From a virus: 33,851 nucleotides of DNA. The stretch's first letter is position 1. Each line of letters opens with the position of its first letter. This document shows positions 11,689 through 33,851 of this stretch, piece after piece. The notes under the pieces were generated by a model. That model saw only the letters and a program-made list of their open reading frames with translations, searched no databases and was not told the origin of the DNA. Where the stretch lies: the IMG/VR virus record IMGVR_UViG_3300025276_000015; one strand, given 5' to 3'. The position numbers were made by a program, and so were the translations under genes.

Positions 11689-11858
11689 TATTCGTATGTA
11701 CTCTTTGAAGGTTTTTTGGGCAGCTCTTTTTTATGAAATACCCGAACACTGTTTTTAGTGTGAGTTAATCCAGTGTGAACTGTGCCGTCAGCCATTGTAT
11801 GAGTTTTCCCATTATACGGCCTTCCAGACAATTTAAAATGCTTTGCGTTTTTAGCCAT
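11688..11858 (-). CDS. Small basic protein a (56 aa), C-terminus ..KSTYE
   Basis: Hand translation: MAKNAKHFKLSGRPYNGKTHTMADGTVHTGLTHTKNSVRVFHKKELPKKPSKSTYE*. The stop overlaps the adaptor ATG (TAATG). The ORF is below the 60-aa track cutoff. Confidence 0.55.
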   Translation of the reverse strand: MAKNAKHFKLSGRPYNGKTHTMADGTVHTGLTHTKNSVRVFHKKELPKKPSKSTYE

Positions 11859-11866
11859 AAAAACTT

Positions 11867-11992
11867 CTACTCGTATGTAGCTCCGCTCTTAACCGTTTTT
11901 GCAGGCTTCTTTTTAATTTTCTTCTTTGCCTTATTAGCAGACATCATGCCTGCTTTGGTATATGGGAACTTTTGACCGTTTACGTTTGGCAT
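11867..11992 (-). CDS. Small basic protein b (41 aa), C-terminus ..SGATYE
   Basis: Hand translation: MPNVNGQKFPYTKAGMMSANKAKKKIKKKPAKTVKSGATYE*. GAGGTGAT lies 3 nt upstream of the ATG. Confidence 0.55.
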   Translation of the reverse strand: MPNVNGQKFPYTKAGMMSANKAKKKIKKKPAKTVKSGATYE

Positions 11993-12000
11993 AAATCACC

Positions 12001-12171
12001 TCACTCAAATGTGGCTTTTTTGGCAGTCTTCGCTGAGTTCTTAAAGGCTTTTGCTGTTGGAGCGCCTTTAGATCCTACCTTACGCATCCTTTCTGGAGTT
12101 TTTCCAGCAGCTTTCTGAGCTTTGATACGTTTTTTCTTTTTGTGGATATTTGCGTAGAGACCGTTATTCAT
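12001..12171 (-). CDS. Small basic protein c (56 aa), C-terminus ..KKATFE
   Basis: Hand translation: MNNGLYANIHKKKKRIKAQKAAGKTPERMRKVGSKGAPTAKAFKNSAKTAKKATFE*. The ATG overlaps the end of ORF d (ATGAATAA). Confidence 0.55.
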   Translation of the reverse strand: MNNGLYANIHKKKKRIKAQKAAGKTPERMRKVGSKGAPTAKAFKNSAKTAKKATFE

Positions 12172-12424
12172 AAGTAGCACTCTTTGCGCCTTTACACTTC
12201 CAGCGCTTACGGCTCAAGTTGTTAGGCGTGTTGGGATCGTTCTGTTGTCTCTTAGATAACTGTTTCTTTATACCTAAAGACCTCGCGCAATACGCATCAC
12301 CTTTGCTAGTGCCTGCGCGTACACGAGAACCACCGTCACTGGCCTTCCCAGCCTGCCCATAGGAGACCTTCTTGCCAGTGGCAGTGACTTTTACTTTCGC
12401 TTTACCTTTTCTCGGAGTAGCCAT
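12164..12424 (-). CDS. Small basic protein d (86 aa), C-terminus ..KSATYE
   Basis: Track ORF, Lys/Arg/Gly-rich, containing GDAYCARS...DPNTPNNLSRKRWKC. It follows the coat-gene terminator directly and has no obvious SD. Confidence 0.5.
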   Translation of the reverse strand: MATPRKGKAKVKVTATGKKVSYGQAGKASDGGSRVRAGTSKGDAYCARSLGIKKQLSKRQQNDPNTPNNLSRKRWKCKGAKSATYE

Positions 12425-12427
12425 AAT

Positions 12428-12451
12428 AAAAAACTAGGAGCCGAAGCTCCC
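12428..12451 (-). terminator. Intrinsic terminator/attenuator just downstream of the major capsid gene
   Basis: Minus strand reads GGGAGC-UUCG-GCUCCU (6-bp stem with one G-U pair and a UUCG tetraloop), followed by AG-UUUUUU-AUU and then the ATG of ORF d. Confidence 0.6.
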
Positions 12452-12465
12452 AGAATACTACAAGG

Positions 12466-20545: not shown

Positions 20546-20767
20546 CTATAGCTCTAGAATTTGAATCTCATTGAGCAGTGATTGATGAGCAAGCTGTCTC
20601 AGGTAAGAAGCGCGGCCTACTGACTGCGGCTTGTCTTTGAGTTTCTCCATTACCCAATCCTGCCATTTACCGGAAGCGGCAAGGCTATCAATGGTGTCCC
20701 AGAAAGTACGCTCCAAGACTATTGAGGTTGGATGTGTCTCTAGCTTTAAAAATCTACGCTCAGCCAT
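20546..20767 (-). CDS. Ribbon-helix-helix (RHH_4-like) protein
   Basis: 73 aa. TSIVLERTFWDTIDSLAA....SYLRQLA resembles the RHH_4 pattern (tSv.Le..FW.al..iA.......s.lr..v). Confidence 0.4.
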   Translation of the reverse strand: MAERRFLKLETHPTSIVLERTFWDTIDSLAASGKWQDWVMEKLKDKPQSVGRASYLRQLAHQSLLNEIQILEL

Positions 20768-21222
20768 TACAAAAACTCTCCTTTATCAACTTCGATAATG
20801 GTCTGCGGAATATTTAGCACAGTCCTTAGCTCTCGGCGAGCCATTGCTGCTACATACTCTTTATGGTCTTTATAGCGAATCTTCTCGCCTTTGGCCTTAG
20901 CACTGTCGTAAATGACAATAAGCCAATCATCGGCCTCCTGCGTCTTCTTGAGCAGAAAGTCTTTGTCTGGCGTGAATTCTTTGCTCCGCTCAAACAGGTC
21001 TCCTATTTTGAGTCCTAGCGATTCTACCACACTATCACCTTTTGCACCGCAAGAGAAACAATAGAATAGGAGCTTCTGGCCTTCAGGCGTGTCAGCCAGA
21101 GAGACAGACATAGAAGGATTGCTGTCATCATGTACAGGACAACAGGCAGTCCACTTGTTAGTGCCTAGCTGCTTGAGCTTGTCTAGCCTATCTAGTACAG
21201 GCGAATACCATTCATTTACCAT
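20767..21222 (-). CDS. Primase-type CHC2 zinc-finger protein (no TOPRIM or polymerase domain)
   Basis: 151 aa. CCPVHDDSNPSMSVSL...LFYCFSCGAKGD matches the DnaG-type CHC2 zinc-binding motif (CPfH.e.tPSf.v......y.CFgCG..GD). Confidence 0.65.
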   Translation of the reverse strand: MVNEWYSPVLDRLDKLKQLGTNKWTACCPVHDDSNPSMSVSLADTPEGQKLLFYCFSCGAKGDSVVESLGLKIGDLFERSKEFTPDKDFLLKKTQEADDWLIVIYDSAKAKGEKIRYKDHKEYVAAMARRELRTVLNIPQTIIEVDKGEFL

Positions 21223-22718
21223 GTGCGCTTACTCCATGCGATCTGGCGGCTCTTGATCCAGCTCAGCGCCTCTGGGATTGGTTCTCGGCCTACTTGCTTC
21301 AGGCCATTAGGAGCGCAAGAGAAGGCATCTATATACTTATGGTACGCCCAGCCTTTCTTGTAGTTATGCTCGTAACCGTAATACAGCAGTGATGAGTACC
21401 AATCTTGCTTCTGCTCCTTGGTCAGCGTCTTACGCCTCGCCTCGGCAGGTGACAGGTTCTCAGCCTTGACGAGCTGTGTGCCGTCATCCTTGAGTGTTGG
21501 CGTACCTATAGGTAACTCCCATCCACACTTACAGCGTAGTCCTGTGAAAGCTCCTGAGCATTGTTTGCACTGATGGACTACAGGCTCTTTCTGTTCTTTC
21601 TTAACCTGCTTGCGCTCGTCAAAGTTTCTTTCGCCTGAATGCAACTCTGAAGGCACGAAGCTCTCTGGGTAAGCGCCGAAGTGAGAGAGATTACCAGCGT
21701 GGTCTAGCACTGTAGCTCGCTCCTTATCAGGATGGATGCGCCAAATTCTTCCGATGCGTTGAATCCAAGTAGTGAGGCTGAATGTTTTATAGCAATCAAT
21801 ACAGATACTTACGCCACTATCGTCCCATCCCGTGTTCAAGAGTCGGCTGTTGATCATCACCTTGTACACGCCATCTTCAAAGTCTTGGTACTTTAGCTGT
21901 CTGGTTGCCTCGTCATCATAGCCGTCTATGTGTACAGCTATCTCTTGACCCAGCTCTCGGTTAAATCTATCCACAAGATTCTTACTGTAGGCAATGGAAG
22001 GAGCGAAGCACACAGCTCGCTTAGTGAGGTTCTCAGAGTGCTTAACGTAGTTAGCCACTATGTCACCTGCCAAGGTGTCATCCTCTGCCATCCGGTCTCC
22101 CAGAGCCTCAGCGTCATAGTCTGAGTTGCCTGTGTGAGACTTCTTGAGCTTGAGGTCAGAGGTGTCTGCCGTCCTGCCGTGGTAGTAATCTGTAGGACAG
22201 AGCCAGCCTTCATCTATCAGGTCTTGCGGAGTGGTAGTCACTATGAGGTCTTGCCATAAGCCTTCTGCTCCCATACCTCGGCTGTAAGGTGTCGCTGTAA
22301 GACCAATATACACAATATTGTTAAACCGCTTCATCTGGTCTAATAGACCTTTGTACATCTGATGAGCTTCATCAATTATCGCTATGTCATAGACAAAGTG
22401 ATTGCGCCGGATAGCTGTAGCTGTACTGACAATTTGAATGTTTTCATCTGGGTTGTAGCGCGAATCGCCAGCTTGCAGGACTGAGTAGCTTGCTCCCAGC
22501 GAATCAAATGTTGCCGTGGTTTGACTCAACAATTTTAACCTGTCACAAAAGAAAGCTATCTTCTTGCCTTTAGCTGCCGCATTGACAGCTATGTAGGCTG
22601 CAATATGCGTCTTGCCCATAGAGCAAGGAGCGCTGAGGATAACGCGCTTGTTACCTGCTTTGAGGCTGTCTCTAAGCGCGTCAACTGCGATTACCTGATG
22701 AGGTCTAAGGCTGATCAT
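21216..22718 (-). CDS. SF2 DEAH-box helicase with a C-terminal zinc ribbon
   Basis: Walker A is in SAPCSMGKTH and the DEAH box in IIDEAHQ. A later CKQCSGAFTGLRCKCGW forms a zinc ribbon. Start refined to MISLRPHQ (ATG 22718) with AAGGAG 10 nt upstream. The longer track start (22862) would overlap the upstream ORF. Confidence 0.8.
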   Translation of the reverse strand: MISLRPHQVIAVDALRDSLKAGNKRVILSAPCSMGKTHIAAYIAVNAAAKGKKIAFFCDRLKLLSQTTATFDSLGASYSVLQAGDSRYNPDENIQIVSTATAIRRNHFVYDIAIIDEAHQMYKGLLDQMKRFNNIVYIGLTATPYSRGMGAEGLWQDLIVTTTPQDLIDEGWLCPTDYYHGRTADTSDLKLKKSHTGNSDYDAEALGDRMAEDDTLAGDIVANYVKHSENLTKRAVCFAPSIAYSKNLVDRFNRELGQEIAVHIDGYDDEATRQLKYQDFEDGVYKVMINSRLLNTGWDDSGVSICIDCYKTFSLTTWIQRIGRIWRIHPDKERATVLDHAGNLSHFGAYPESFVPSELHSGERNFDERKQVKKEQKEPVVHQCKQCSGAFTGLRCKCGWELPIGTPTLKDDGTQLVKAENLSPAEARRKTLTKEQKQDWYSSLLYYGYEHNYKKGWAYHKYIDAFSCAPNGLKQVGREPIPEALSWIKSRQIAWSKRTW

Positions 22719-22935
22719 GCGGCTCAAGCTCCTTGCAGACATCATCATAGATGCCTTTGTAGTCGGGATGACCATAGCGGCTTGAGCCGTCAGCCATTTG
22801 GTAAGTGCGCCAGATCGCAACATCTGAGCAGTAGCGGAACTCAGCCGCCTTAGCTTCTTCAAAGTCTGAGCCTGAAACCATAAGAAATCCTACGATCACA
22901 AGTAATCCAGCAGCTATCCCAATTAGATTCCGCAT
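22705..22935 (-). CDS. Small membrane-anchored or secreted protein (hypothetical)
   Basis: 76 aa. N-terminal hydrophobic helix (LIGIAAGLLVIVGFLMV), then a soluble part with two Cys. Confidence 0.4.
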   Translation of the reverse strand: MRNLIGIAAGLLVIVGFLMVSGSDFEEAKAAEFRYCSDVAIWRTYQMADGSSRYGHPDYKGIYDDVCKELEPHDQP

Positions 22936-24926: not shown

Positions 24927-24955
24927 TTGACACCTGCAAATAACCTCTGTACACT
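24927..24955 (+). promoter_or_regulatory. Candidate rightward sigma70-type promoter
   Basis: TTGACA (24927-24932), 17 nt, TACACT (24950-24955), about 35 nt upstream of the erf ATG. Confidence 0.45.
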
Positions 24956-24988: not shown

Positions 24989-25561
24989 ATGGAAAAACAT
25001 CACTTCTGGACGGCTTTTTTTGCCGCACAATCAAACTTCACCTCTCCTAAGAAATCAGGCATTAACGGCTTTGCCAATGGTCACAAGTACCACAAGCTAG
25101 AAGACCTGTTGCCTGCTGTTTACACAGTCTTATCTGAGCAAGATATCTTCTTTCGCTTTGAAGACATCAACTGTGATGAAACCGCTGGTACTAGAATATG
25201 GATGCAACATATGCCTAGCGGTCAGCAGTTTACTCAGGACTGTTTGGTAGACAAAAAGTTGCGTGACGCGCAAGCCTGTGGCGGCTGCTACACCTACGCT
25301 AAGCGCTATCTTCTTTGCAGTCTGTTTCTCGTATCAGATCCGAAGTTAGATGATGATGCTGACCGCGCCACTAACGGTGACCGCAAGCAAAAGCCAAAGA
25401 TAGCTTCTGACTCTCGCATAGCTAAGATTAAGAAAGACCTCGCAGAGATTAAGATTACCGAAGAGCGAGCGTTGAAACTTGTAGGAGCTGAGACTTGGAT
25501 ACTGAGTCTTGATCAGGCTGACCAGCTTGAAATGGCTATTATCAACAAGAAGGCTCAATGA
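24989..25561 (+). CDS. erf: ERF-family single-strand annealing protein
   Basis: 190 aa. The N-terminal pattern FANGHKYHKLEDLLPAV and the GGCYTYAKRYLLCSLFLVSDPKLDDDAD block parallel P22 Erf (FGKYKYRSCEDILEGV; GATSSYARKYCLNGLFGIDD). Confidence 0.7.
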   Translation: MEKHHFWTAFFAAQSNFTSPKKSGINGFANGHKYHKLEDLLPAVYTVLSEQDIFFRFEDINCDETAGTRIWMQHMPSGQQFTQDCLVDKKLRDAQACGGCYTYAKRYLLCSLFLVSDPKLDDDADRATNGDRKQKPKIASDSRIAKIKKDLAEIKITEERALKLVGAETWILSLDQADQLEMAIINKKAQ

Positions 25562-25833
25562 ATAAGACCGAAACAACCTGCGATGTCTGCGCGAAGTCTA
25601 AACCGCGCAGCAATCGCTGGTGCAAAGAGTGTATAGCTTTGCATTGTTTCGCTAATTCTTTATGGAGAATACGTCATGACCAAAGTGATTTACTGCCAGC
25701 AAGGAACGCCAGAATGGCATCAGGCCCGATGCGGTTATATCAGCGCCTCAAATATGAAATCTTTGTTTACGAGCCGAGGCGAGAAGACAGCATCAGGCGT
25801 GAGAGAGACTTACCTGAATCAAGTGATAGCTGA
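25558..25833 (+). CDS. Possible small zinc-ribbon ORF overlapping the exonuclease gene (doubtful)
   Basis: Its ATG overlaps the erf stop (ATGA). The N-terminal 40 aa carry CDVC-x11-CKEC. The last 158 nt overlap the well-supported exonuclease frame and read as low-quality Arg-rich sequence. Confidence 0.25.
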   Translation: MNKTETTCDVCAKSKPRSNRWCKECIALHCFANSLWRIRHDQSDLLPARNARMASGPMRLYQRLKYEIFVYEPRREDSIRRERDLPESSDS

Positions 25834-26302
25834 ACGCCTAATGGGCAAGCCTATGGATACCTACACCAGCTACGACATGGAGCGTGGCTCTTTGTTAGAA
25901 GAGCAGGCGAGAGCTAACTTTGAGATGTACCTAGACTGTACAGTTCAAGAAGTTGGTTTCCATATGCACGATGATCATGACATAGGATGCTCGCCAGACG
26001 GCCTATTTGCCGACACAGGAGTTGAAATCAAGTGTCCTAAGGCAAACACTCACGTTAGGTATATGCGCTCCAAAAAGCTGCCTTCTGAGTACATCCAACA
26101 GGTTCAAGGCACGATGTACGTCATGAACCTAGATCGGTATTACTTCATGTCTTATCACCCAGACCTGAAGCCAATAATTATTGAAGTCAAACGCGATAAT
26201 GAACTAATAGACAAAGCTGCCGAAATACTTATAGCAGCCGCCAACATTGTTAAAACTGAAACGGAGAAGTTAAATGAGCAACGCATTCAAAACCCTAACT
26301 AG
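25676..26302 (+). CDS. YqaJ-type (lambda-exonuclease-like, PD-(D/E)xK) recombination exonuclease
   Basis: 208 aa. QQGTPEWHQARCGYISASNM is the YqaJ N-terminal signature. SPDGLFADTGVEIKCP carries the D...ExK catalytic motif. GGAGAA SD lies 6 nt upstream. Confidence 0.75.
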   Translation: MTKVIYCQQGTPEWHQARCGYISASNMKSLFTSRGEKTASGVRETYLNQVIAERLMGKPMDTYTSYDMERGSLLEEQARANFEMYLDCTVQEVGFHMHDDHDIGCSPDGLFADTGVEIKCPKANTHVRYMRSKKLPSEYIQQVQGTMYVMNLDRYYFMSYHPDLKPIIIEVKRDNELIDKAAEILIAAANIVKTETEKLNEQRIQNPN

Positions 26303-26555
26303 CGTCAATAAGTCTACATATGATGACGGATACTACGGTCAAATTGATCCAGCAGTCCTGCGAGAGCTTGTGACAGCTCTGGACAACGGTCAGGTGTCAC
26401 TCAACAAAGGCGGCAAGATAGCCTTGAAAGGTTGGAAGAACACGCCTGAAGGCGGCGGTGAGCCTTACATCTCAATGAAGTGGTCAGCTCCTATGAGCAG
26501 CGCTCCAGCAGCTCCAGCAGCAGCTCCATCTAGTTTTGAGGACATACCATTCTAA
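26274..26555 (+). CDS. Small protein with an SSB-like Pro/Ala linker and C-terminal FEDIPF tip (compact SSB or SSB-tip mimic)
   Basis: 93 aa, ending ...SAPMSSAPAAPAAAPSSFEDIPF* (FEDIPF at 26535..26552). E. coli SSB ends DDDIPF. GGAG SD lies 7 nt upstream. Confidence 0.5.
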   Translation: MSNAFKTLTSVNKSTYDDGYYGQIDPAVLRELVTALDNGQVSLNKGGKIALKGWKNTPEGGGEPYISMKWSAPMSSAPAAPAAAPSSFEDIPF

Positions 26556-26794
26556 TGAAGGTAATCAATCTTAAAGAAGAAGGCATCAAGAGAGTAGCAT
26601 CGCGCAGCAAGTATGTTGTGCGATGGCTTGATATAGATGAGAGCGAAGCTCTGTCGTTTGACGACTACGATGACATGAGGATTGCCTACCACTCAATTAG
26701 CAGCTTCTTGCGAAAGAACAAGGATCTTTACAAGGTGAAGCAATTTTCAGATCAAGGAGCAAGACGCTACTTAATCTTAAAGGTGCGCGAATGA
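26555..26794 (+). CDS. Hypothetical protein
   Basis: 79-aa ORF with a TAATG overlap to the upstream gene and an ATGA overlap to the downstream gene. Confidence 0.35.
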   Translation: MKVINLKEEGIKRVASRSKYVVRWLDIDESEALSFDDYDDMRIAYHSISSFLRKNKDLYKVKQFSDQGARRYLILKVRE

Positions 26795-27210
26795 AGATAA
26801 CTGCGGCAGATACTATGTTTAGTAAATGCGTCAGATCCAGAACTAACTGGTGCTGCGAAGCCTGCGGCACACAGTATGAGGAAGGATCGCAAGGACTCCA
26901 TTGTAGCCATTACTTTGGACGCAGAGCCTACGCTGTACGCTTTGATCCGATGAACGCCTTTGCCCATTGCTTTGGCTGTCACCAGAAGCTAGGCAGCAAT
27001 CCTGATGACTTCCAACGCTGGGCTGAGGCTCATTTAGGCGAACAGGCTATTGGTATCCTGCGTGAGAAGCGCGAAAACATTAGCCTTGCTAAAGACTATA
27101 AAAAGAACCTCAAGGATGTTGCCAAGCACTACCGTGAGCAATTTGCACTAATCCAAACAGCGCGAGCAGAAGGCAATGACGGACGAATCGAATTCATTGG
27201 ATATATTTGA
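26791..27210 (+). CDS. ninG: NinG/Rap-like recombination endonuclease
   Basis: 139 aa. FSKCVRSRTNWCCEACG....LHCSHYFGRRAYAVRFDPMNAFAHCFGCH matches the NinG Cys/His pattern (iR.RD..C..CG....GHy.sr....lrFd..N...QC..CN). Confidence 0.6.
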   Translation: MKITAADTMFSKCVRSRTNWCCEACGTQYEEGSQGLHCSHYFGRRAYAVRFDPMNAFAHCFGCHQKLGSNPDDFQRWAEAHLGEQAIGILREKRENISLAKDYKKNLKDVAKHYREQFALIQTARAEGNDGRIEFIGYI

Positions 27211-27640
27211 TATGAGTATAAATGAAGGCCAGCACTGGATAGTTAATTCAGACCACGCTATGAAGATGTTCAAAGAGCATATTGACGAGTTGTATGCTAA
27301 GGACAAGTACCTCGTAATCAAATGGGCTACTGGCAAGCAGCGCAGCTTGAAGCAGAACTCCGCGCTCCACGTTTGGTGTCAACTAATGGCTGATGAACTC
27401 AATGCCGCTGGCTTAGGAATGGAGAAGGTCTTAGAGCATAAGGCATCTATTGATTGGACTATGGGAGGAGTTAAGGAACACCTCTGGAAGCCTGTGCAGG
27501 AAGCTATGACAGGCAAGGACTCTACCTCCAGCGCAGAAAAGCTAGACTACGTTAAGGTCTATGAGACTTTAAACCGTCACTTCGGTGACAAGATGGGCAT
27601 TCATGTGCCGTGGCCTACCTTTGAAAACAGCAATACTTGA
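27176..27640 (+). CDS. ninB: NinB/Orf-like recombination mediator
   Basis: 154 aa. The pattern ..VIKWATGKQRSLKQNSALHVWCQLMADEL... W....K..W .... resembles lambda NinB (ERNRSLDQNRKLWACLGDVS...). An alternative start at 27212 lies 1 nt after the ninG stop. Confidence 0.5.
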   Translation: MTDESNSLDIFDMSINEGQHWIVNSDHAMKMFKEHIDELYAKDKYLVIKWATGKQRSLKQNSALHVWCQLMADELNAAGLGMEKVLEHKASIDWTMGGVKEHLWKPVQEAMTGKDSTSSAEKLDYVKVYETLNRHFGDKMGIHVPWPTFENSNT

Positions 27641-29517: not shown

Positions 29518-30705
29518 CTATAATGTCAGGTCAGGAACTTTGCGCGAGTTTCTGATTTTGTAAATGTGACGAAGCGCCTCTCCTCCATCACGATGAAAAG
29601 TGATCTGCGTCATTACGCTAGATGCGGAATAGCCGTGACTTGCGTGGTAAGAGTCAGGAGGAGCTAACGTCCCGAAACTTTCCACGAAAACACCATTATC
29701 AGTCTCTATCGCGTTCTGATGATGAATATGTCCTACTAGCCACTTTCGGTAGTTAGTAGAAGACCATTGCTCAGGTAACATCCTTGGCAAGATAGCTGCG
29801 AGTTTAGGCGCTTTAATTTTGTCAGCGTGATGTACCGCCAATAATGTTTCCCCAAATTTGAGTGTATGAAAAAATCCGTGAGGATCTAATATGTTAACTC
29901 TTTTCTCTTTCTGGTAATAAAACTTTAGTATTAAAGCTAAAGCAATAGCCGTGTCCGAATCGTGGTTACCACGAGCCATAATTACAGAGACGTTTTTGTG
30001 CTTAGCAAGCATCTTCTCAATAGCGAAAATAAACGTCTGAGCCGCAGTCTCTAGCACCACTTCGATTCGAGTGTCTACGTCTAACCTAGTGCCGCCAAAA
30101 GTAGTTCCTGCCGATCCGTTAGCGTGTATAAAATCGCCCACGTTTACCAGCAAGGAATGCTCAGAAGCTGTAGATACATCTACAAGATAGTCTATGGCCT
30201 CAAGATGAGAATTAGCCGCTATCTTAGTATCGTAGTCCTGCTCCTTAGTCTCTCTCGCGTCAGCCCTCATACCAAAGTGTGCGTCACCTATTATTATCGT
30301 AGGCAATAAATCAGAAGCAAACTTCTTTATCTTTGGTTTGGCTTTTGGTTTGTACGGTGTAACGCCTTTAACCAAACCGTCAACAAAACCTTGCAGTGCT
30401 TTATCTCGCGCTGCCTCGGTCATTGTTCTGCGGGTCTTTAACCACGCCTTCTCGCCATCGTCGGTCGTCGTGTAGATACTACGACCGATAACTATTTCGC
30501 CTTCAGGAACATGACGACTAGCATCCCAGTTGTCAGAGTAACCCGCAGCAGATGCCTTGCTCCTAACAGCGGTAACGTGATCTCGAAGCGTTGACGGCGA
30601 AATATTAAGTATTCCCGCCGCTCGCGCACCATTCCGACCGCAGTCTTCCCAGACTTGTATTGCTTCGCGCTGTCGTTCTGTCTTTGCGTAATCAACTAGA
30701 CTCAT
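29518..30705 (-). CDS. HTH domain fused to a calcineurin-like metallophosphoesterase (SbcD/Mre11-like motif set)
   Basis: 395 aa. N-terminal LuxR/sigma-r4-like HTH (RQREAIQVWEDCGRNGARAAGILNISPSTLRDHV). Metallophosphoesterase motifs: IIGDAHFG, VGDFIH, ARGNHD, VGHIHH. Confidence 0.65.
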   Translation of the reverse strand: MSLVDYAKTERQREAIQVWEDCGRNGARAAGILNISPSTLRDHVTAVRSKASAAGYSDNWDASRHVPEGEIVIGRSIYTTTDDGEKAWLKTRRTMTEAARDKALQGFVDGLVKGVTPYKPKAKPKIKKFASDLLPTIIIGDAHFGMRADARETKEQDYDTKIAANSHLEAIDYLVDVSTASEHSLLVNVGDFIHANGSAGTTFGGTRLDVDTRIEVVLETAAQTFIFAIEKMLAKHKNVSVIMARGNHDSDTAIALALILKFYYQKEKRVNILDPHGFFHTLKFGETLLAVHHADKIKAPKLAAILPRMLPEQWSSTNYRKWLVGHIHHQNAIETDNGVFVESFGTLAPPDSYHASHGYSASSVMTQITFHRDGGEALRHIYKIRNSRKVPDLTL

Positions 30706-33140: not shown

Positions 33141-33851
33141 TTACGCTAGAGCGAGTCCGGCAACAAAGCCATACCAAATAGTGCCACCGTCACAGGTTAT
33201 AAAGACTAAAACATCAGTCCCAGAGGCAGTAAGTGTAGGAGCAGTAGCAGCAGGCCAATCAACCGTGGTGGGCCAAGTCTGAGCTGCGGAGCCACCGTTA
33301 ATTAATTTAATACTAAAGCCACAGAGTTCGTCACTAGCAGTAGGATTAGAGAACGTCCAAGTCGTAGCACCAGTTGTAGTAGCCGTAACTGAGTTGCCTA
33401 GTGCAAGATCAATCGTCTTAGCCCCTGTAGCATTGCCAATGGCGTTTGTAATCTCGCCGTAGTCTAAGAGGTTAGCTCTCTGTAGAGTGTTATCTGCTAA
33501 GTTTTGCGTCCCAGTAAAAGTATTAGCACCTAGAATGGCCGCTGTACCCACTACCCCCGCAGGAGGCAGACCAGTTGCGTTAGTCAACGTTCCAGAAGCA
33601 GGCGTACCTAAAACAGGAGCAGTCAAAACAGGGCCTGTTAAGGTTTTGTTAGTCAACGTGTCTGTAGATATTAGACTGACAAGCGTTGAACTAGCTCCGA
33701 TTGGAAGCAACATTGTATTCGTAACACTTGCGCTGTGCGGCTGTGCTTTAAGCGTTTGCCCGTGAGTGTTAGCGTGACAATTGAGTTTAATTTGTCCTTC
33801 TACACTAGACCCATTGCCTTTTACTTCTATTATTTGTGTGGCCGGGGACAC
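33141..33851 (-). CDS. Tail fibre protein, C-terminal part of the wrap-around gene (5' part at 463..1)
   Basis: The ORF is open at the window edge. The track M at 33851 is really an internal GTG (Val) codon. It contains LTNKTLTGPVLTAPVLGTP repeats and a C-terminal knob (..TWTFSNP...FSIKLINGG..QTWP..VDWP....P.L...G.DV..F...DGG..W.G). Confidence 0.8.
   Translation of the reverse strand: MSPATQIIEVKGNGSSVEGQIKLNCHANTHGQTLKAQPHSASVTNTMLLPIGASSTLVSLISTDTLTNKTLTGPVLTAPVLGTPASGTLTNATGLPPAGVVGTAAILGANTFTGTQNLADNTLQRANLLDYGEITNAIGNATGAKTIDLALGNSVTATTTGATTWTFSNPTASDELCGFSIKLINGGSAAQTWPTTVDWPAATAPTLTASGTDVLVFITCDGGTIWYGFVAGLALA
33725..33851. repeat. Second copy of the 127-bp closure overlap (identical to 1..127)
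   Basis: Exact identity to the first 127 bases of the window. Confidence 0.9.

Follow-up and report, generated by a model that had tools for sequence, protein, structure and literature searches.

Proteins that interact with bacterial SSB (single-stranded DNA-binding protein) bind the last residues of SSB, above all its terminal Phe, and SSBs of the T7 gp2.5 type carry an acidic C-terminal tail ending in an aromatic residue that recruits replication and recombination partners. Recombination proteins of phages make use of such contacts: RecT proteins recognise the last 7 residues of SSB (bioRxiv 10.1101/2020.04.14.041095), annealing by Sak4 of phage HK620 is stimulated by the neighbouring phage SSB through the last six residues of that SSB (PMC5928155), and gp2.5 has been discussed in PMC2896510. 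In addition, the SSB C-terminal domain has been placed on another DNA-binding head in an engineered chimera, PriB-SSBc (PMC8509808). Here we describe a protein of 93 amino acids, ORF93, encoded by the IMG/VR virus record IMGVR_UViG_3300025276_000015, a stretch of 33,851 nucleotides that was analysed over its full length and is referred to as the window. ORF93 combines a small head of a family not described before with a linker and a tip of the SSB type, and in related viruses its head has been exchanged for another on a conserved tail. The evidence leans modestly towards ORF93 being the phage's compact substitute for SSB (head, tether and plug) in its recombination and replication module, with a putative binding to single-stranded DNA (ssDNA).

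The ORF93 gene extends from position 26274 to 26555 on the plus strand, stop codon included, and its product has the full sequence MSNAFKTLTSVNKSTYDDGYYGQIDPAVLRELVTALDNGQVSLNKGGKIALKGWKNTPEGGGEPYISMKWSAPMSSAPAAPAAAPSSFEDIPF, with a C-terminal end that reads ...APAAPAAAPSSFEDIPF (also given as ...SAPMSSAPAAPAAAPSSFEDIPF). A ribosome-binding site read from the sequence, GGAG (26263..26266, plus strand), is located 7 nt 5' of the ATG, within the 3' end of the upstream gene encoding a YqaJ-type exonuclease. ORF93 begins within the YqaJ gene, the two overlapping by 29 nt, and at its 3' end the stop codon runs into the ATG of the following open reading frame (ORF), of 79 amino acids, in the sequence TAATG; ORF93 is translationally coupled to both neighbours. 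No competing ORF of any size is present on the opposite strand. Across 56 distinct alleles of the ORF93 family, pooled Nei-Gojobori ratios of nonsynonymous to synonymous substitution rates (dN/dS) came to 0.13 in the head (residues 1-71), 0.41 in the linker and 0.09 in the tip. The ribosome-binding site, the overlapping start and stop and dN/dS values well below 1 therefore identify ORF93, which is found in 79 homologous loci, as a real gene, with selection acting on two separate parts of its product, the head and the last five residues.

These last five residues, EDIPF (residues 89-93; 26538..26552, plus strand), form a tip resembling the SSB C-terminus (SSB-Ct), as indicated by conservation, by dN/dS and by the hhalign comparison with E. 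coli SSB, in which the last 10 residues alone align (APSSFEDIPF to PMDFDDDIPF). F88, immediately before the tip, completes the ending FEDIPF. In an alignment of 46 sequences D90 and P92 are invariant, and position 93 is occupied by Phe in 44 of the 46 and by Trp in the remaining 2; D-[ILV]-P-[FW] ends the protein in all 79 family loci (79/79), down to 36% overall identity. The stricter pattern [DE][DE][ILVM]P[FW]-stop was counted among 4,723 six-frame ORFs of at least 40 amino acids from the window and 78 related loci, where it occurs 69 times, always in the ORF93 family, against 0.02 occurrences expected, and the 10 family members without it end in xD[IV]PF. The ORF93 tip is thus far beyond chance. 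The tip is joined to the head by a disordered Ala/Pro/Ser-rich linker, APMSSAPAAPAAAPSSF (residues 72-88; 26487..26537, plus strand), whose length and composition vary across homologues (21-32 residues after a conserved KW); its alignment columns have an entropy of 2-2.9 bits with many indels, and the AlphaFold2 predicted local distance difference test score (pLDDT) is below 50 for residues 76-92, so that the tail is disordered in the model. The preliminary description of this DNA, made from the sequence alone, had reported a 93-residue ORF with such a linker and the FEDIPF tip, and the sequence, the disorder in the model and the conservation bear this out. It had also named absence of the tip from homologues as a finding that would speak against an SSB-like role; the tip is kept in every homologue, and that reading is not refuted.

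The explanation that ORF93 is a chance ORF or annotation artefact, with a coincidental SSB-like ending in a non-functional frame, has virtually no chance of being correct and is already refuted by the conservation and selection data. Nothing was found in its favour. The sole odd relatives are P0006, of 147 amino acids on a 662-nt contig, in which the first 64 ORF93 residues are joined to a fragment of a histidine-kinase ATPase in what is probably a chimeric assembly, and P0004, an internally deleted variant of 77 amino acids without head residues 35-50. Against it stand the intact ORF in 79 loci with dN/dS of 0.09-0.41, the ribosome-binding site and translational coupling, the excess of the tip pattern over expectation and the confident AlphaFold fold.

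The N-terminal head (residues 1-71; 26274..26486, plus strand) is delimited as a folded unit by AlphaFold2, conservation and dN/dS. With the 46-sequence alignment as input, AlphaFold2 predicted an alpha/beta head of about 70 amino acids with a pLDDT of approximately 90 for residues 10-70, consisting of strands at residues 5-13, 20-24, 51-56 and 65-71 and a helix at residues 26-37; an earlier model built from 7 sequences was of low confidence. Residues S14, Y20, Y21, G47, N56, G62 and K69 are invariant and K13, K45 and W70 nearly so, most of these positions being aromatic, lysine or glycine, and the conserved aromatic residues Y20, Y21, W54, Y65 and W70 together with lysines K13, K45, K52 and K69 are located on the predicted strands. 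ORF93 had no match in Pfam (E 0.1), PHROGs (E 0.1) or NCBIfam. A Pfam scan of 46 family members returned sub-threshold noise only (HalOD1 in 15 of them, best E 0.007), with none of the 46 matching either the SSB family PF00436 or DUF736 (PF05284) at E 1, and a sequence-profile search of the PDB gave only an insignificant adhesin match at E 0.26. In Foldseek searches of the PDB neither the low- nor the high-confidence model had a match below E 0.4, and those against BFVD returned marginal matches only (best E 0.015), all of them to uncharacterised small phage proteins. The head was also considered as the C-terminal half of the oligonucleotide/oligosaccharide-binding (OB) fold of SSB (strand 3, helix, strands 4 and 5), a proposal that was rejected for want of hhalign or Foldseek support. 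From sequence and model, the ORF93 head would therefore be a folded domain of about 70 amino acids from a family not described before, with no detected relative in sequence or fold.

These comparisons agree with the preliminary description in that the N-terminal 70 or so residues are unlike the SSB OB fold, since hhalign aligned only the last 10 residues and Foldseek returned no OB match. Structure prediction, which had been proposed there as a way of finding an OB fold in the head, gave a confident alpha/beta model without such a match. Its remark that the protein is too short for an OB fold holds for the SSB-family domain, which spans about 105-115 amino acids, but not for OB folds generally; cold-shock domains and the Shiga toxin B subunit are OB folds of about 70 amino acids. 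As a separate observation, ORF22R of Anabaena phage A-4L (L167:13687-13992, 101 amino acids) gave a weak Foldseek match to the ORF93 model (BFVD A0A059PY23, E 0.19). It is encoded directly downstream of the Erf-like ORF21R (phrog_2324, E 3e-46) and has, by eye, a similar strand-helix-hairpin layout and a P/Q-rich tail, with no acidic tip and the ending TPHY; as a sequence homologue of ORF93 it was rejected, at an hhalign probability of 0.5%.

Compared with bacterial SSBs of the PF00436 family, ORF93 shares the disordered Pro/Ala-rich linker and the acidic tip ending in I/L-P-F, and its tip would be expected to have the same role, offering annealing proteins and genome-maintenance proteins of the host a place to dock. 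It differs in having a head of about 70 rather than about 112 amino acids, with no PF00436 match and no OB fold detected, a linker of about 17 amino acids where that of E. coli SSB has about 56, and two acidic residues in the tip instead of three. With T7 gp2.5 it shares the concept of a phage ssDNA-binding protein with a partner-recruiting, acidic, aromatic-ended tail, but gp2.5 has about 230 amino acids and an OB fold with an extra helix, and its tail targets the phage's own polymerase and helicase, of which the polymerase is absent here. ORF93 had no match to the gp2.5, DUF2815 or Enc34 ORF6 type, whose members have about 200-230 amino acids, in Pfam, in PHROGs or, by Foldseek, in the PDB, which holds structures of both gp2.5 and Enc34 ORF6.

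The ORF93 family comprises approximately 50 protein clusters of 91-104 amino acids, none of them named and none with a Pfam domain. Its 79 loci all belong to uncultivated marine viruses, 69 of them in IMG/VR. No match was found by DNA and protein searches among 50,697 cultured phage records, and no relative is present in 185,579 isolate genomes, which indicates that ORF93 is not a prophage gene of known bacteria. The gene immediately upstream encodes YqaJ in 64 of the 79 loci (in the order Erf, then YqaJ) and a phrog_11717 protein in 11; three further loci are cut at the contig end and one has no recognised upstream gene. This position beside a phage annealing protein recalls the ssb gene of HK620. 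The phrog_11717 (Slr1353_N) protein, of about 200 amino acids and from an uncharacterised, unnamed family with more than 4,800 members, replaces both Erf and YqaJ upstream of the tip gene (L008:9409-10008, L001:238-861 and L079:4001-4624). Its assignment as a Rad52/Sak-type annealing protein was rejected, hhalign against the Erf proteins of the loci giving a probability of 0.2%. Its C-terminal domain (approximately residues 90-190, with LWVAPSK..F.TTEER) recurs in genuine Erf proteins that related phages encode, such as L107:401-1036 (BLASTP E 4e-8), and this shared domain suggests that the phrog_11717 protein is a functional counterpart of the annealing protein. It may be an annealing protein that has not been described, and the domain it shares with Erf may be the module that reads the SSB tip.

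In phages with the phrog_11717 protein but without ORF93, the same slot holds a different protein of about 88 amino acids with a Pro/Ala linker and an SSB-like tip, ending in APAAPAMPDDFAEDLPW and QPAAPAEDFTNDVPW. Such slot proteins (about 77-100 amino acids), referred to here as mini-SSBs, match two profiles that carry the annotation 'single strand DNA binding protein', phrog_18154 (E 2e-10) and phrog_7364 (E 5e-9). Homologues also occur in several cultured phages, among them AUG85480.1 of Acinetobacter phage SH-Ab 15497 (99 amino acids, ...DLDDDLPF; L084:2992-3291), whose gene adjoins a DNA polymerase gene, and AZS06529.1 of Alteromonas phage ZP6 (95 amino acids, ...FDFDDDIPF; L083:4989-5276), and both are annotated as ssDNA-binding. 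The family is abundant, with at least 375 confirmed loci in IMG/VR (further examples are L079:4750-5013, L080:4618-4887 and those in L085-L164), and its members have 76-115 amino acids, with the exception of one ORF call of 156 amino acids with an upstream extension. Their heads share the signature YDNxNxGxLFKNDxK...PDYxG...W.SAW.K..G.f.SLS, and most of 76 distinct sequences end in [DE][DE][ILVM]PF. DUF736 is matched weakly by 6 of 24 mini-SSBs (best E 9e-4), below the family threshold. The mini-SSB gene directly follows YqaJ in 24 loci, Erf in 18 and the phrog_11717 gene in 15, and each partner (Erf/YqaJ or phrog_11717) is found with each occupant (ORF93 or mini-SSB), which makes four combinations. 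Judged from these sequences, a small head on an SSB tail is a recurring and already annotated phage architecture that is not unique to ORF93.

A direct comparison of the two occupants is offered by contig L001, which carries an ORF93-type gene (P0007), and contig L079, which carries a mini-SSB gene. On the upstream side, 982 nt of their DNA are 91.0% identical, and on the downstream side 1,660 nt are 90.4% identical, with identities of 79-98% between the neighbouring proteins. Homology is lost only in the head-coding region (L001:983-1240 vs L079:4746-4959) and returns inside the gene, within DNA that codes for the linker, at 54 nt from the stop. Both proteins consequently have the distal linker and tip in common, PATPDEFADDIPW in L001 and PAMPDDFAEDLPW in L079, each with the rare terminal Trp. 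Read from the DNA alignment, the heads have been exchanged as cassettes while the tail was retained, which argues that both heads do the same job, independent of the upstream recombinase. Together with the four combinations of partner and occupant, the exchange points to a head ligand common to both contexts, as DNA would be. Like PriB-SSBc, the L001 and L079 genes present the SSB linker and tip as a portable module on different heads; the chimera is a laboratory construct with an OB-fold head, whereas ORF93 would be a natural graft, swapped at the linker and with a head lacking a detectable OB fold.

ORF93 and the mini-SSBs are alike in size class, in the order of head, linker and DDDIPF-type tip, in their slot after Erf, YqaJ or phrog_11717, in their exchange and possibly in a terminal beta-hairpin. 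Full-length hhalign comparison of the two families gave a probability of 96-97% (E 1e-9 to 3e-10) over 44-45 columns, corresponding to the last beta-hairpin (I.LKGW.N..GG..YISLK vs yW.SAW.k..k.g.f.SLs), the linker and the tip. This score and the common size, slot and tail would fit a rival classification, which we consider rather unlikely, in which ORF93 is a very diverged mini-SSB of the phrog_18154/7364 type with a helix insertion and has the same ancestry and job. When the tails are removed, however, only 20 hairpin columns align, at 43% probability (E 2.5e-4), and jackhmmer with the head alone recruits no mini-SSB in 5 iterations; the link obtained by full-length jackhmmer was discarded as tail-seeded, being absent with the head-only query. 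The ORF93 head has a predicted helix at residues 26-37 and lacks the YDNxNxG...PDYxG signature, and ORF93 has no PHROG match at E 0.1, whereas mini-SSBs match phrog_18154 at about 1e-10. The distribution differs as well, mini-SSBs being abundant, present in cultured phages and in some cases encoded beside a DNA polymerase, whereas the ORF93 family is small and absent from cultured phages. In L001 and L079 the head DNA cannot be aligned and the tails are homologous, as would be expected if a cassette had been replaced and the tail common to both had raised the full-length score. ORF93 would accordingly be placed in a distinct head family, a shared hairpin being possible.

The window carries an exact direct overlap of 127 bp between its ends (1-127 and 33725-33851), and therefore it is a closed circular assembly representing a complete genome of 33,724 bp. 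Its genes include a P22-like podovirus set, with the large terminase, a P22-type portal, the major head protein and the head closure protein Hc3, as well as an ejection protein, a P22 tail accessory factor and tail fibres. The genes for DNA metabolism encode an SF2 helicase, a stand-alone DnaG-type zinc ribbon, Erf, the YqaJ exonuclease, NinG and a weakly matching NinB/Orf. Neither a polymerase nor a PF00436 SSB was found among the genes of the complete genome by Pfam and PHROG scans, so that the earlier placement of ORF93 in the Erf/exonuclease module of a phage without polymerase holds for the whole genome. A search for a hidden SSB by tblastn and jackhmmer, using the E. coli SSB OB domain as query, detected no E. 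coli-type SSB in the window or in loci L001-L164, which comprise the ORF93- and mini-SSB-family loci. Judged by the portal protein, the closest cultured relatives include Pseudoalteromonas phage H6/1, at 44% identity, and, at 35%, Vibrio podoviruses, and on the basis of these relatives the host is probably a marine gammaproteobacterium. The SSBs of such hosts, we infer, end in DDDIPF.

In the proposed mechanism, the head would bind ssDNA produced by the YqaJ exonuclease and at replication forks, and the flexible linker of about 17 residues would tether the EDIPF tip, a copy of the bacterial SSB C-terminus. In accordance with established SSB biology, pockets on SSB-interacting proteins would receive the terminal Phe of the tip and its carboxylate, the likely clients being the phage proteins Erf and NinB and the host proteins chi, PriA, DnaG, RecO and ExoI. 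The outcome would be the loading of annealing proteins and of the host replication and restart machinery onto the ssDNA of a phage whose genome has no polymerase or canonical SSB. An SSB-equivalent role is favoured because of the architecture, the conservation of the tip, the fixed position after annealing and exonuclease genes, the equivalence of the slot, the head swap, the chemistry of the head and the need of the genome. Several observations weigh against it. The head of ORF93, with an isoelectric point (pI) of about 8, is near neutral. No similarity of the head to an OB fold or a known DNA-binding domain was detectable, the hhalign comparison with E. coli SSB being limited to the tip, and the best Foldseek match of the high-confidence model to the PDB was at E 0.43, with none above a template modelling score (TM) of 0.4. 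The same applies to the two head-only comparisons with mini-SSBs given above. The 'SSB' label of the mini-SSBs is a database annotation, and their profile aligns to E. coli SSB via the tail only; they have no solved structure or Pfam family, and in sequence they weakly resemble the Shiga toxin B subunit (E 0.14). Literature searches found no paper on the ORF93 or mini-SSB family, on DUF736 function or on Slr1353. Finally, the nearest cultured relatives of the phage encode no tip-bearing protein, indicating that the function is dispensable there or is supplied by the host SSB.

An adaptor or decoy that carries the tip without binding DNA, whose head binds a protein or merely oligomerises and whose tip competes with host SSB for its interacting proteins, is in our view quite unlikely. 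Such a protein could shield phage recombination intermediates from ExoI, RecQ or RecG, draw away host replication factors or blind an SSB-sensing defence. It would agree with a head that matches no DNA-binding fold and is not basic, with a tip that is the most constrained part of the protein, with a short linker, from which the tip may act near whatever the head holds, and with the lack of any experiment in the literature searched that ties either small family to DNA. However, a phage without polymerase needs host chi, DnaG and PriA, and their titration would presumably harm its own replication. In near-identical genomes the head can be replaced by that of an SSB-annotated family, two different upstream partners make a partner-specific protein ligand unlikely, and a decoy would need no head under a dN/dS of 0.13 with invariant surface-type Tyr, Trp and Lys residues. 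The reading of ORF93 as a minimal SSB is thus favoured over a decoy because the same slot holds an SSB-annotated family, because only the head is exchanged and because a decoy would starve a phage dependent on the host replisome. A related possibility, held tentatively and considered somewhat unlikely, is that the SSB linker and tip form a conserved 'socket' for unrelated small heads, exchanged through recombination in linker-coding DNA, in which case the head of ORF93, an unknown fold of about 70 amino acids, would represent either a new class of ssDNA-binding domain or, more radically, a protein-targeting head without DNA binding, which would make ORF93 a natural mimic of SSB-Ct that vies with host SSB for its partners in the infected cell.

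The genes around ORF93 form a rightward operon on the plus strand, the first of them encoding the Erf-family single-strand annealing protein (24989..25561; PF04404 E 9.8e-16, phrog_155 E 3e-21). The YqaJ-type 5'-3' exonuclease gene (25676..26302; PF09588 E 1.1e-22, phrog_149 E 3e-36) lies directly upstream of ORF93. The 79-amino-acid ORF coupled to it through TAATG (26555..26794) co-occurs with ORF93 in 58 loci and had no family match in Pfam, PHROGs or NCBIfam. It is followed by genes for a NinG/Rap-like junction endonuclease (26791..27210; phrog_5034 E 2e-26, and PF05766 at E 1e-4, below the curated cut-off) and, with a weak match, a NinB/Orf-like recombination mediator (27176..27640; phrog_7283 E 6e-6, and PF05772 at E 0.004, below the curated cut-off). 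A promoter-like site, TTGACA-17-TACACT, found by consensus scan about 35 nt upstream of erf (24927..24955, plus strand), is a candidate start of the operon; it is its position that supports this assignment, the number of such sites in the region being not above chance. A 91-amino-acid ORF (25558-25833, plus strand) begins at the stop of erf (ATGA) and shares 158 nt with yqaJ, which is read in a different frame. It has CxxC...CxxC in its first 30 or so residues, resembling a zinc ribbon, and could be either a genuine short gene or spurious; related loci do not keep the distance between erf and yqaJ. Elsewhere in the genome, the stand-alone zinc ribbon is a 151-amino-acid protein (20767-21222, minus strand) that is in essence a CHC2 zinc ribbon of the DnaG type (PF01807 E 5e-11) and lacks the primase catalytic domain, and its gene adjoins that of the SF2 helicase (21216-22862, minus strand), a pair also present in contigs L006 and L008. 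Located between the lysis genes and the tail assembly chaperone gene is one for a 395-amino-acid calcineurin-like phosphoesterase (29518-30705, minus strand; PF00149 E 2e-6), which is kept in the related contigs L008, L079 and L080. The 777 nt (11689-12465) that separate the P22 tail accessory factor gene from the gene for the major head protein contain no ORF of at least 90 amino acids.

An SSB-type tail on a phage DNA-metabolism protein encoded beside an annealing protein is known, including a common and annotated version with a small head; what is new is the ORF93 head family, which has no relative in sequence or fold, and the exchange of heads on a conserved tail. The annealing proteins of phages function only if they recognise the SSB tip of the host, which limits recombineering (bioRxiv 10.1101/2020.04.14.041095), and a 93-residue protein with a tip of the host type could serve, when expressed together with its annealing protein, as a very small cognate SSB. 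Tip-bearing proteins below 100 amino acids, of at least two families, are common in marine phages, and no biochemical study of them was found in the literature. With proteins of this kind, the size of head required for presenting an SSB tip on ssDNA could be studied in a minimal system, and the natural head swap indicates that the SSB tail is as portable in evolution as it is in engineered chimeras.

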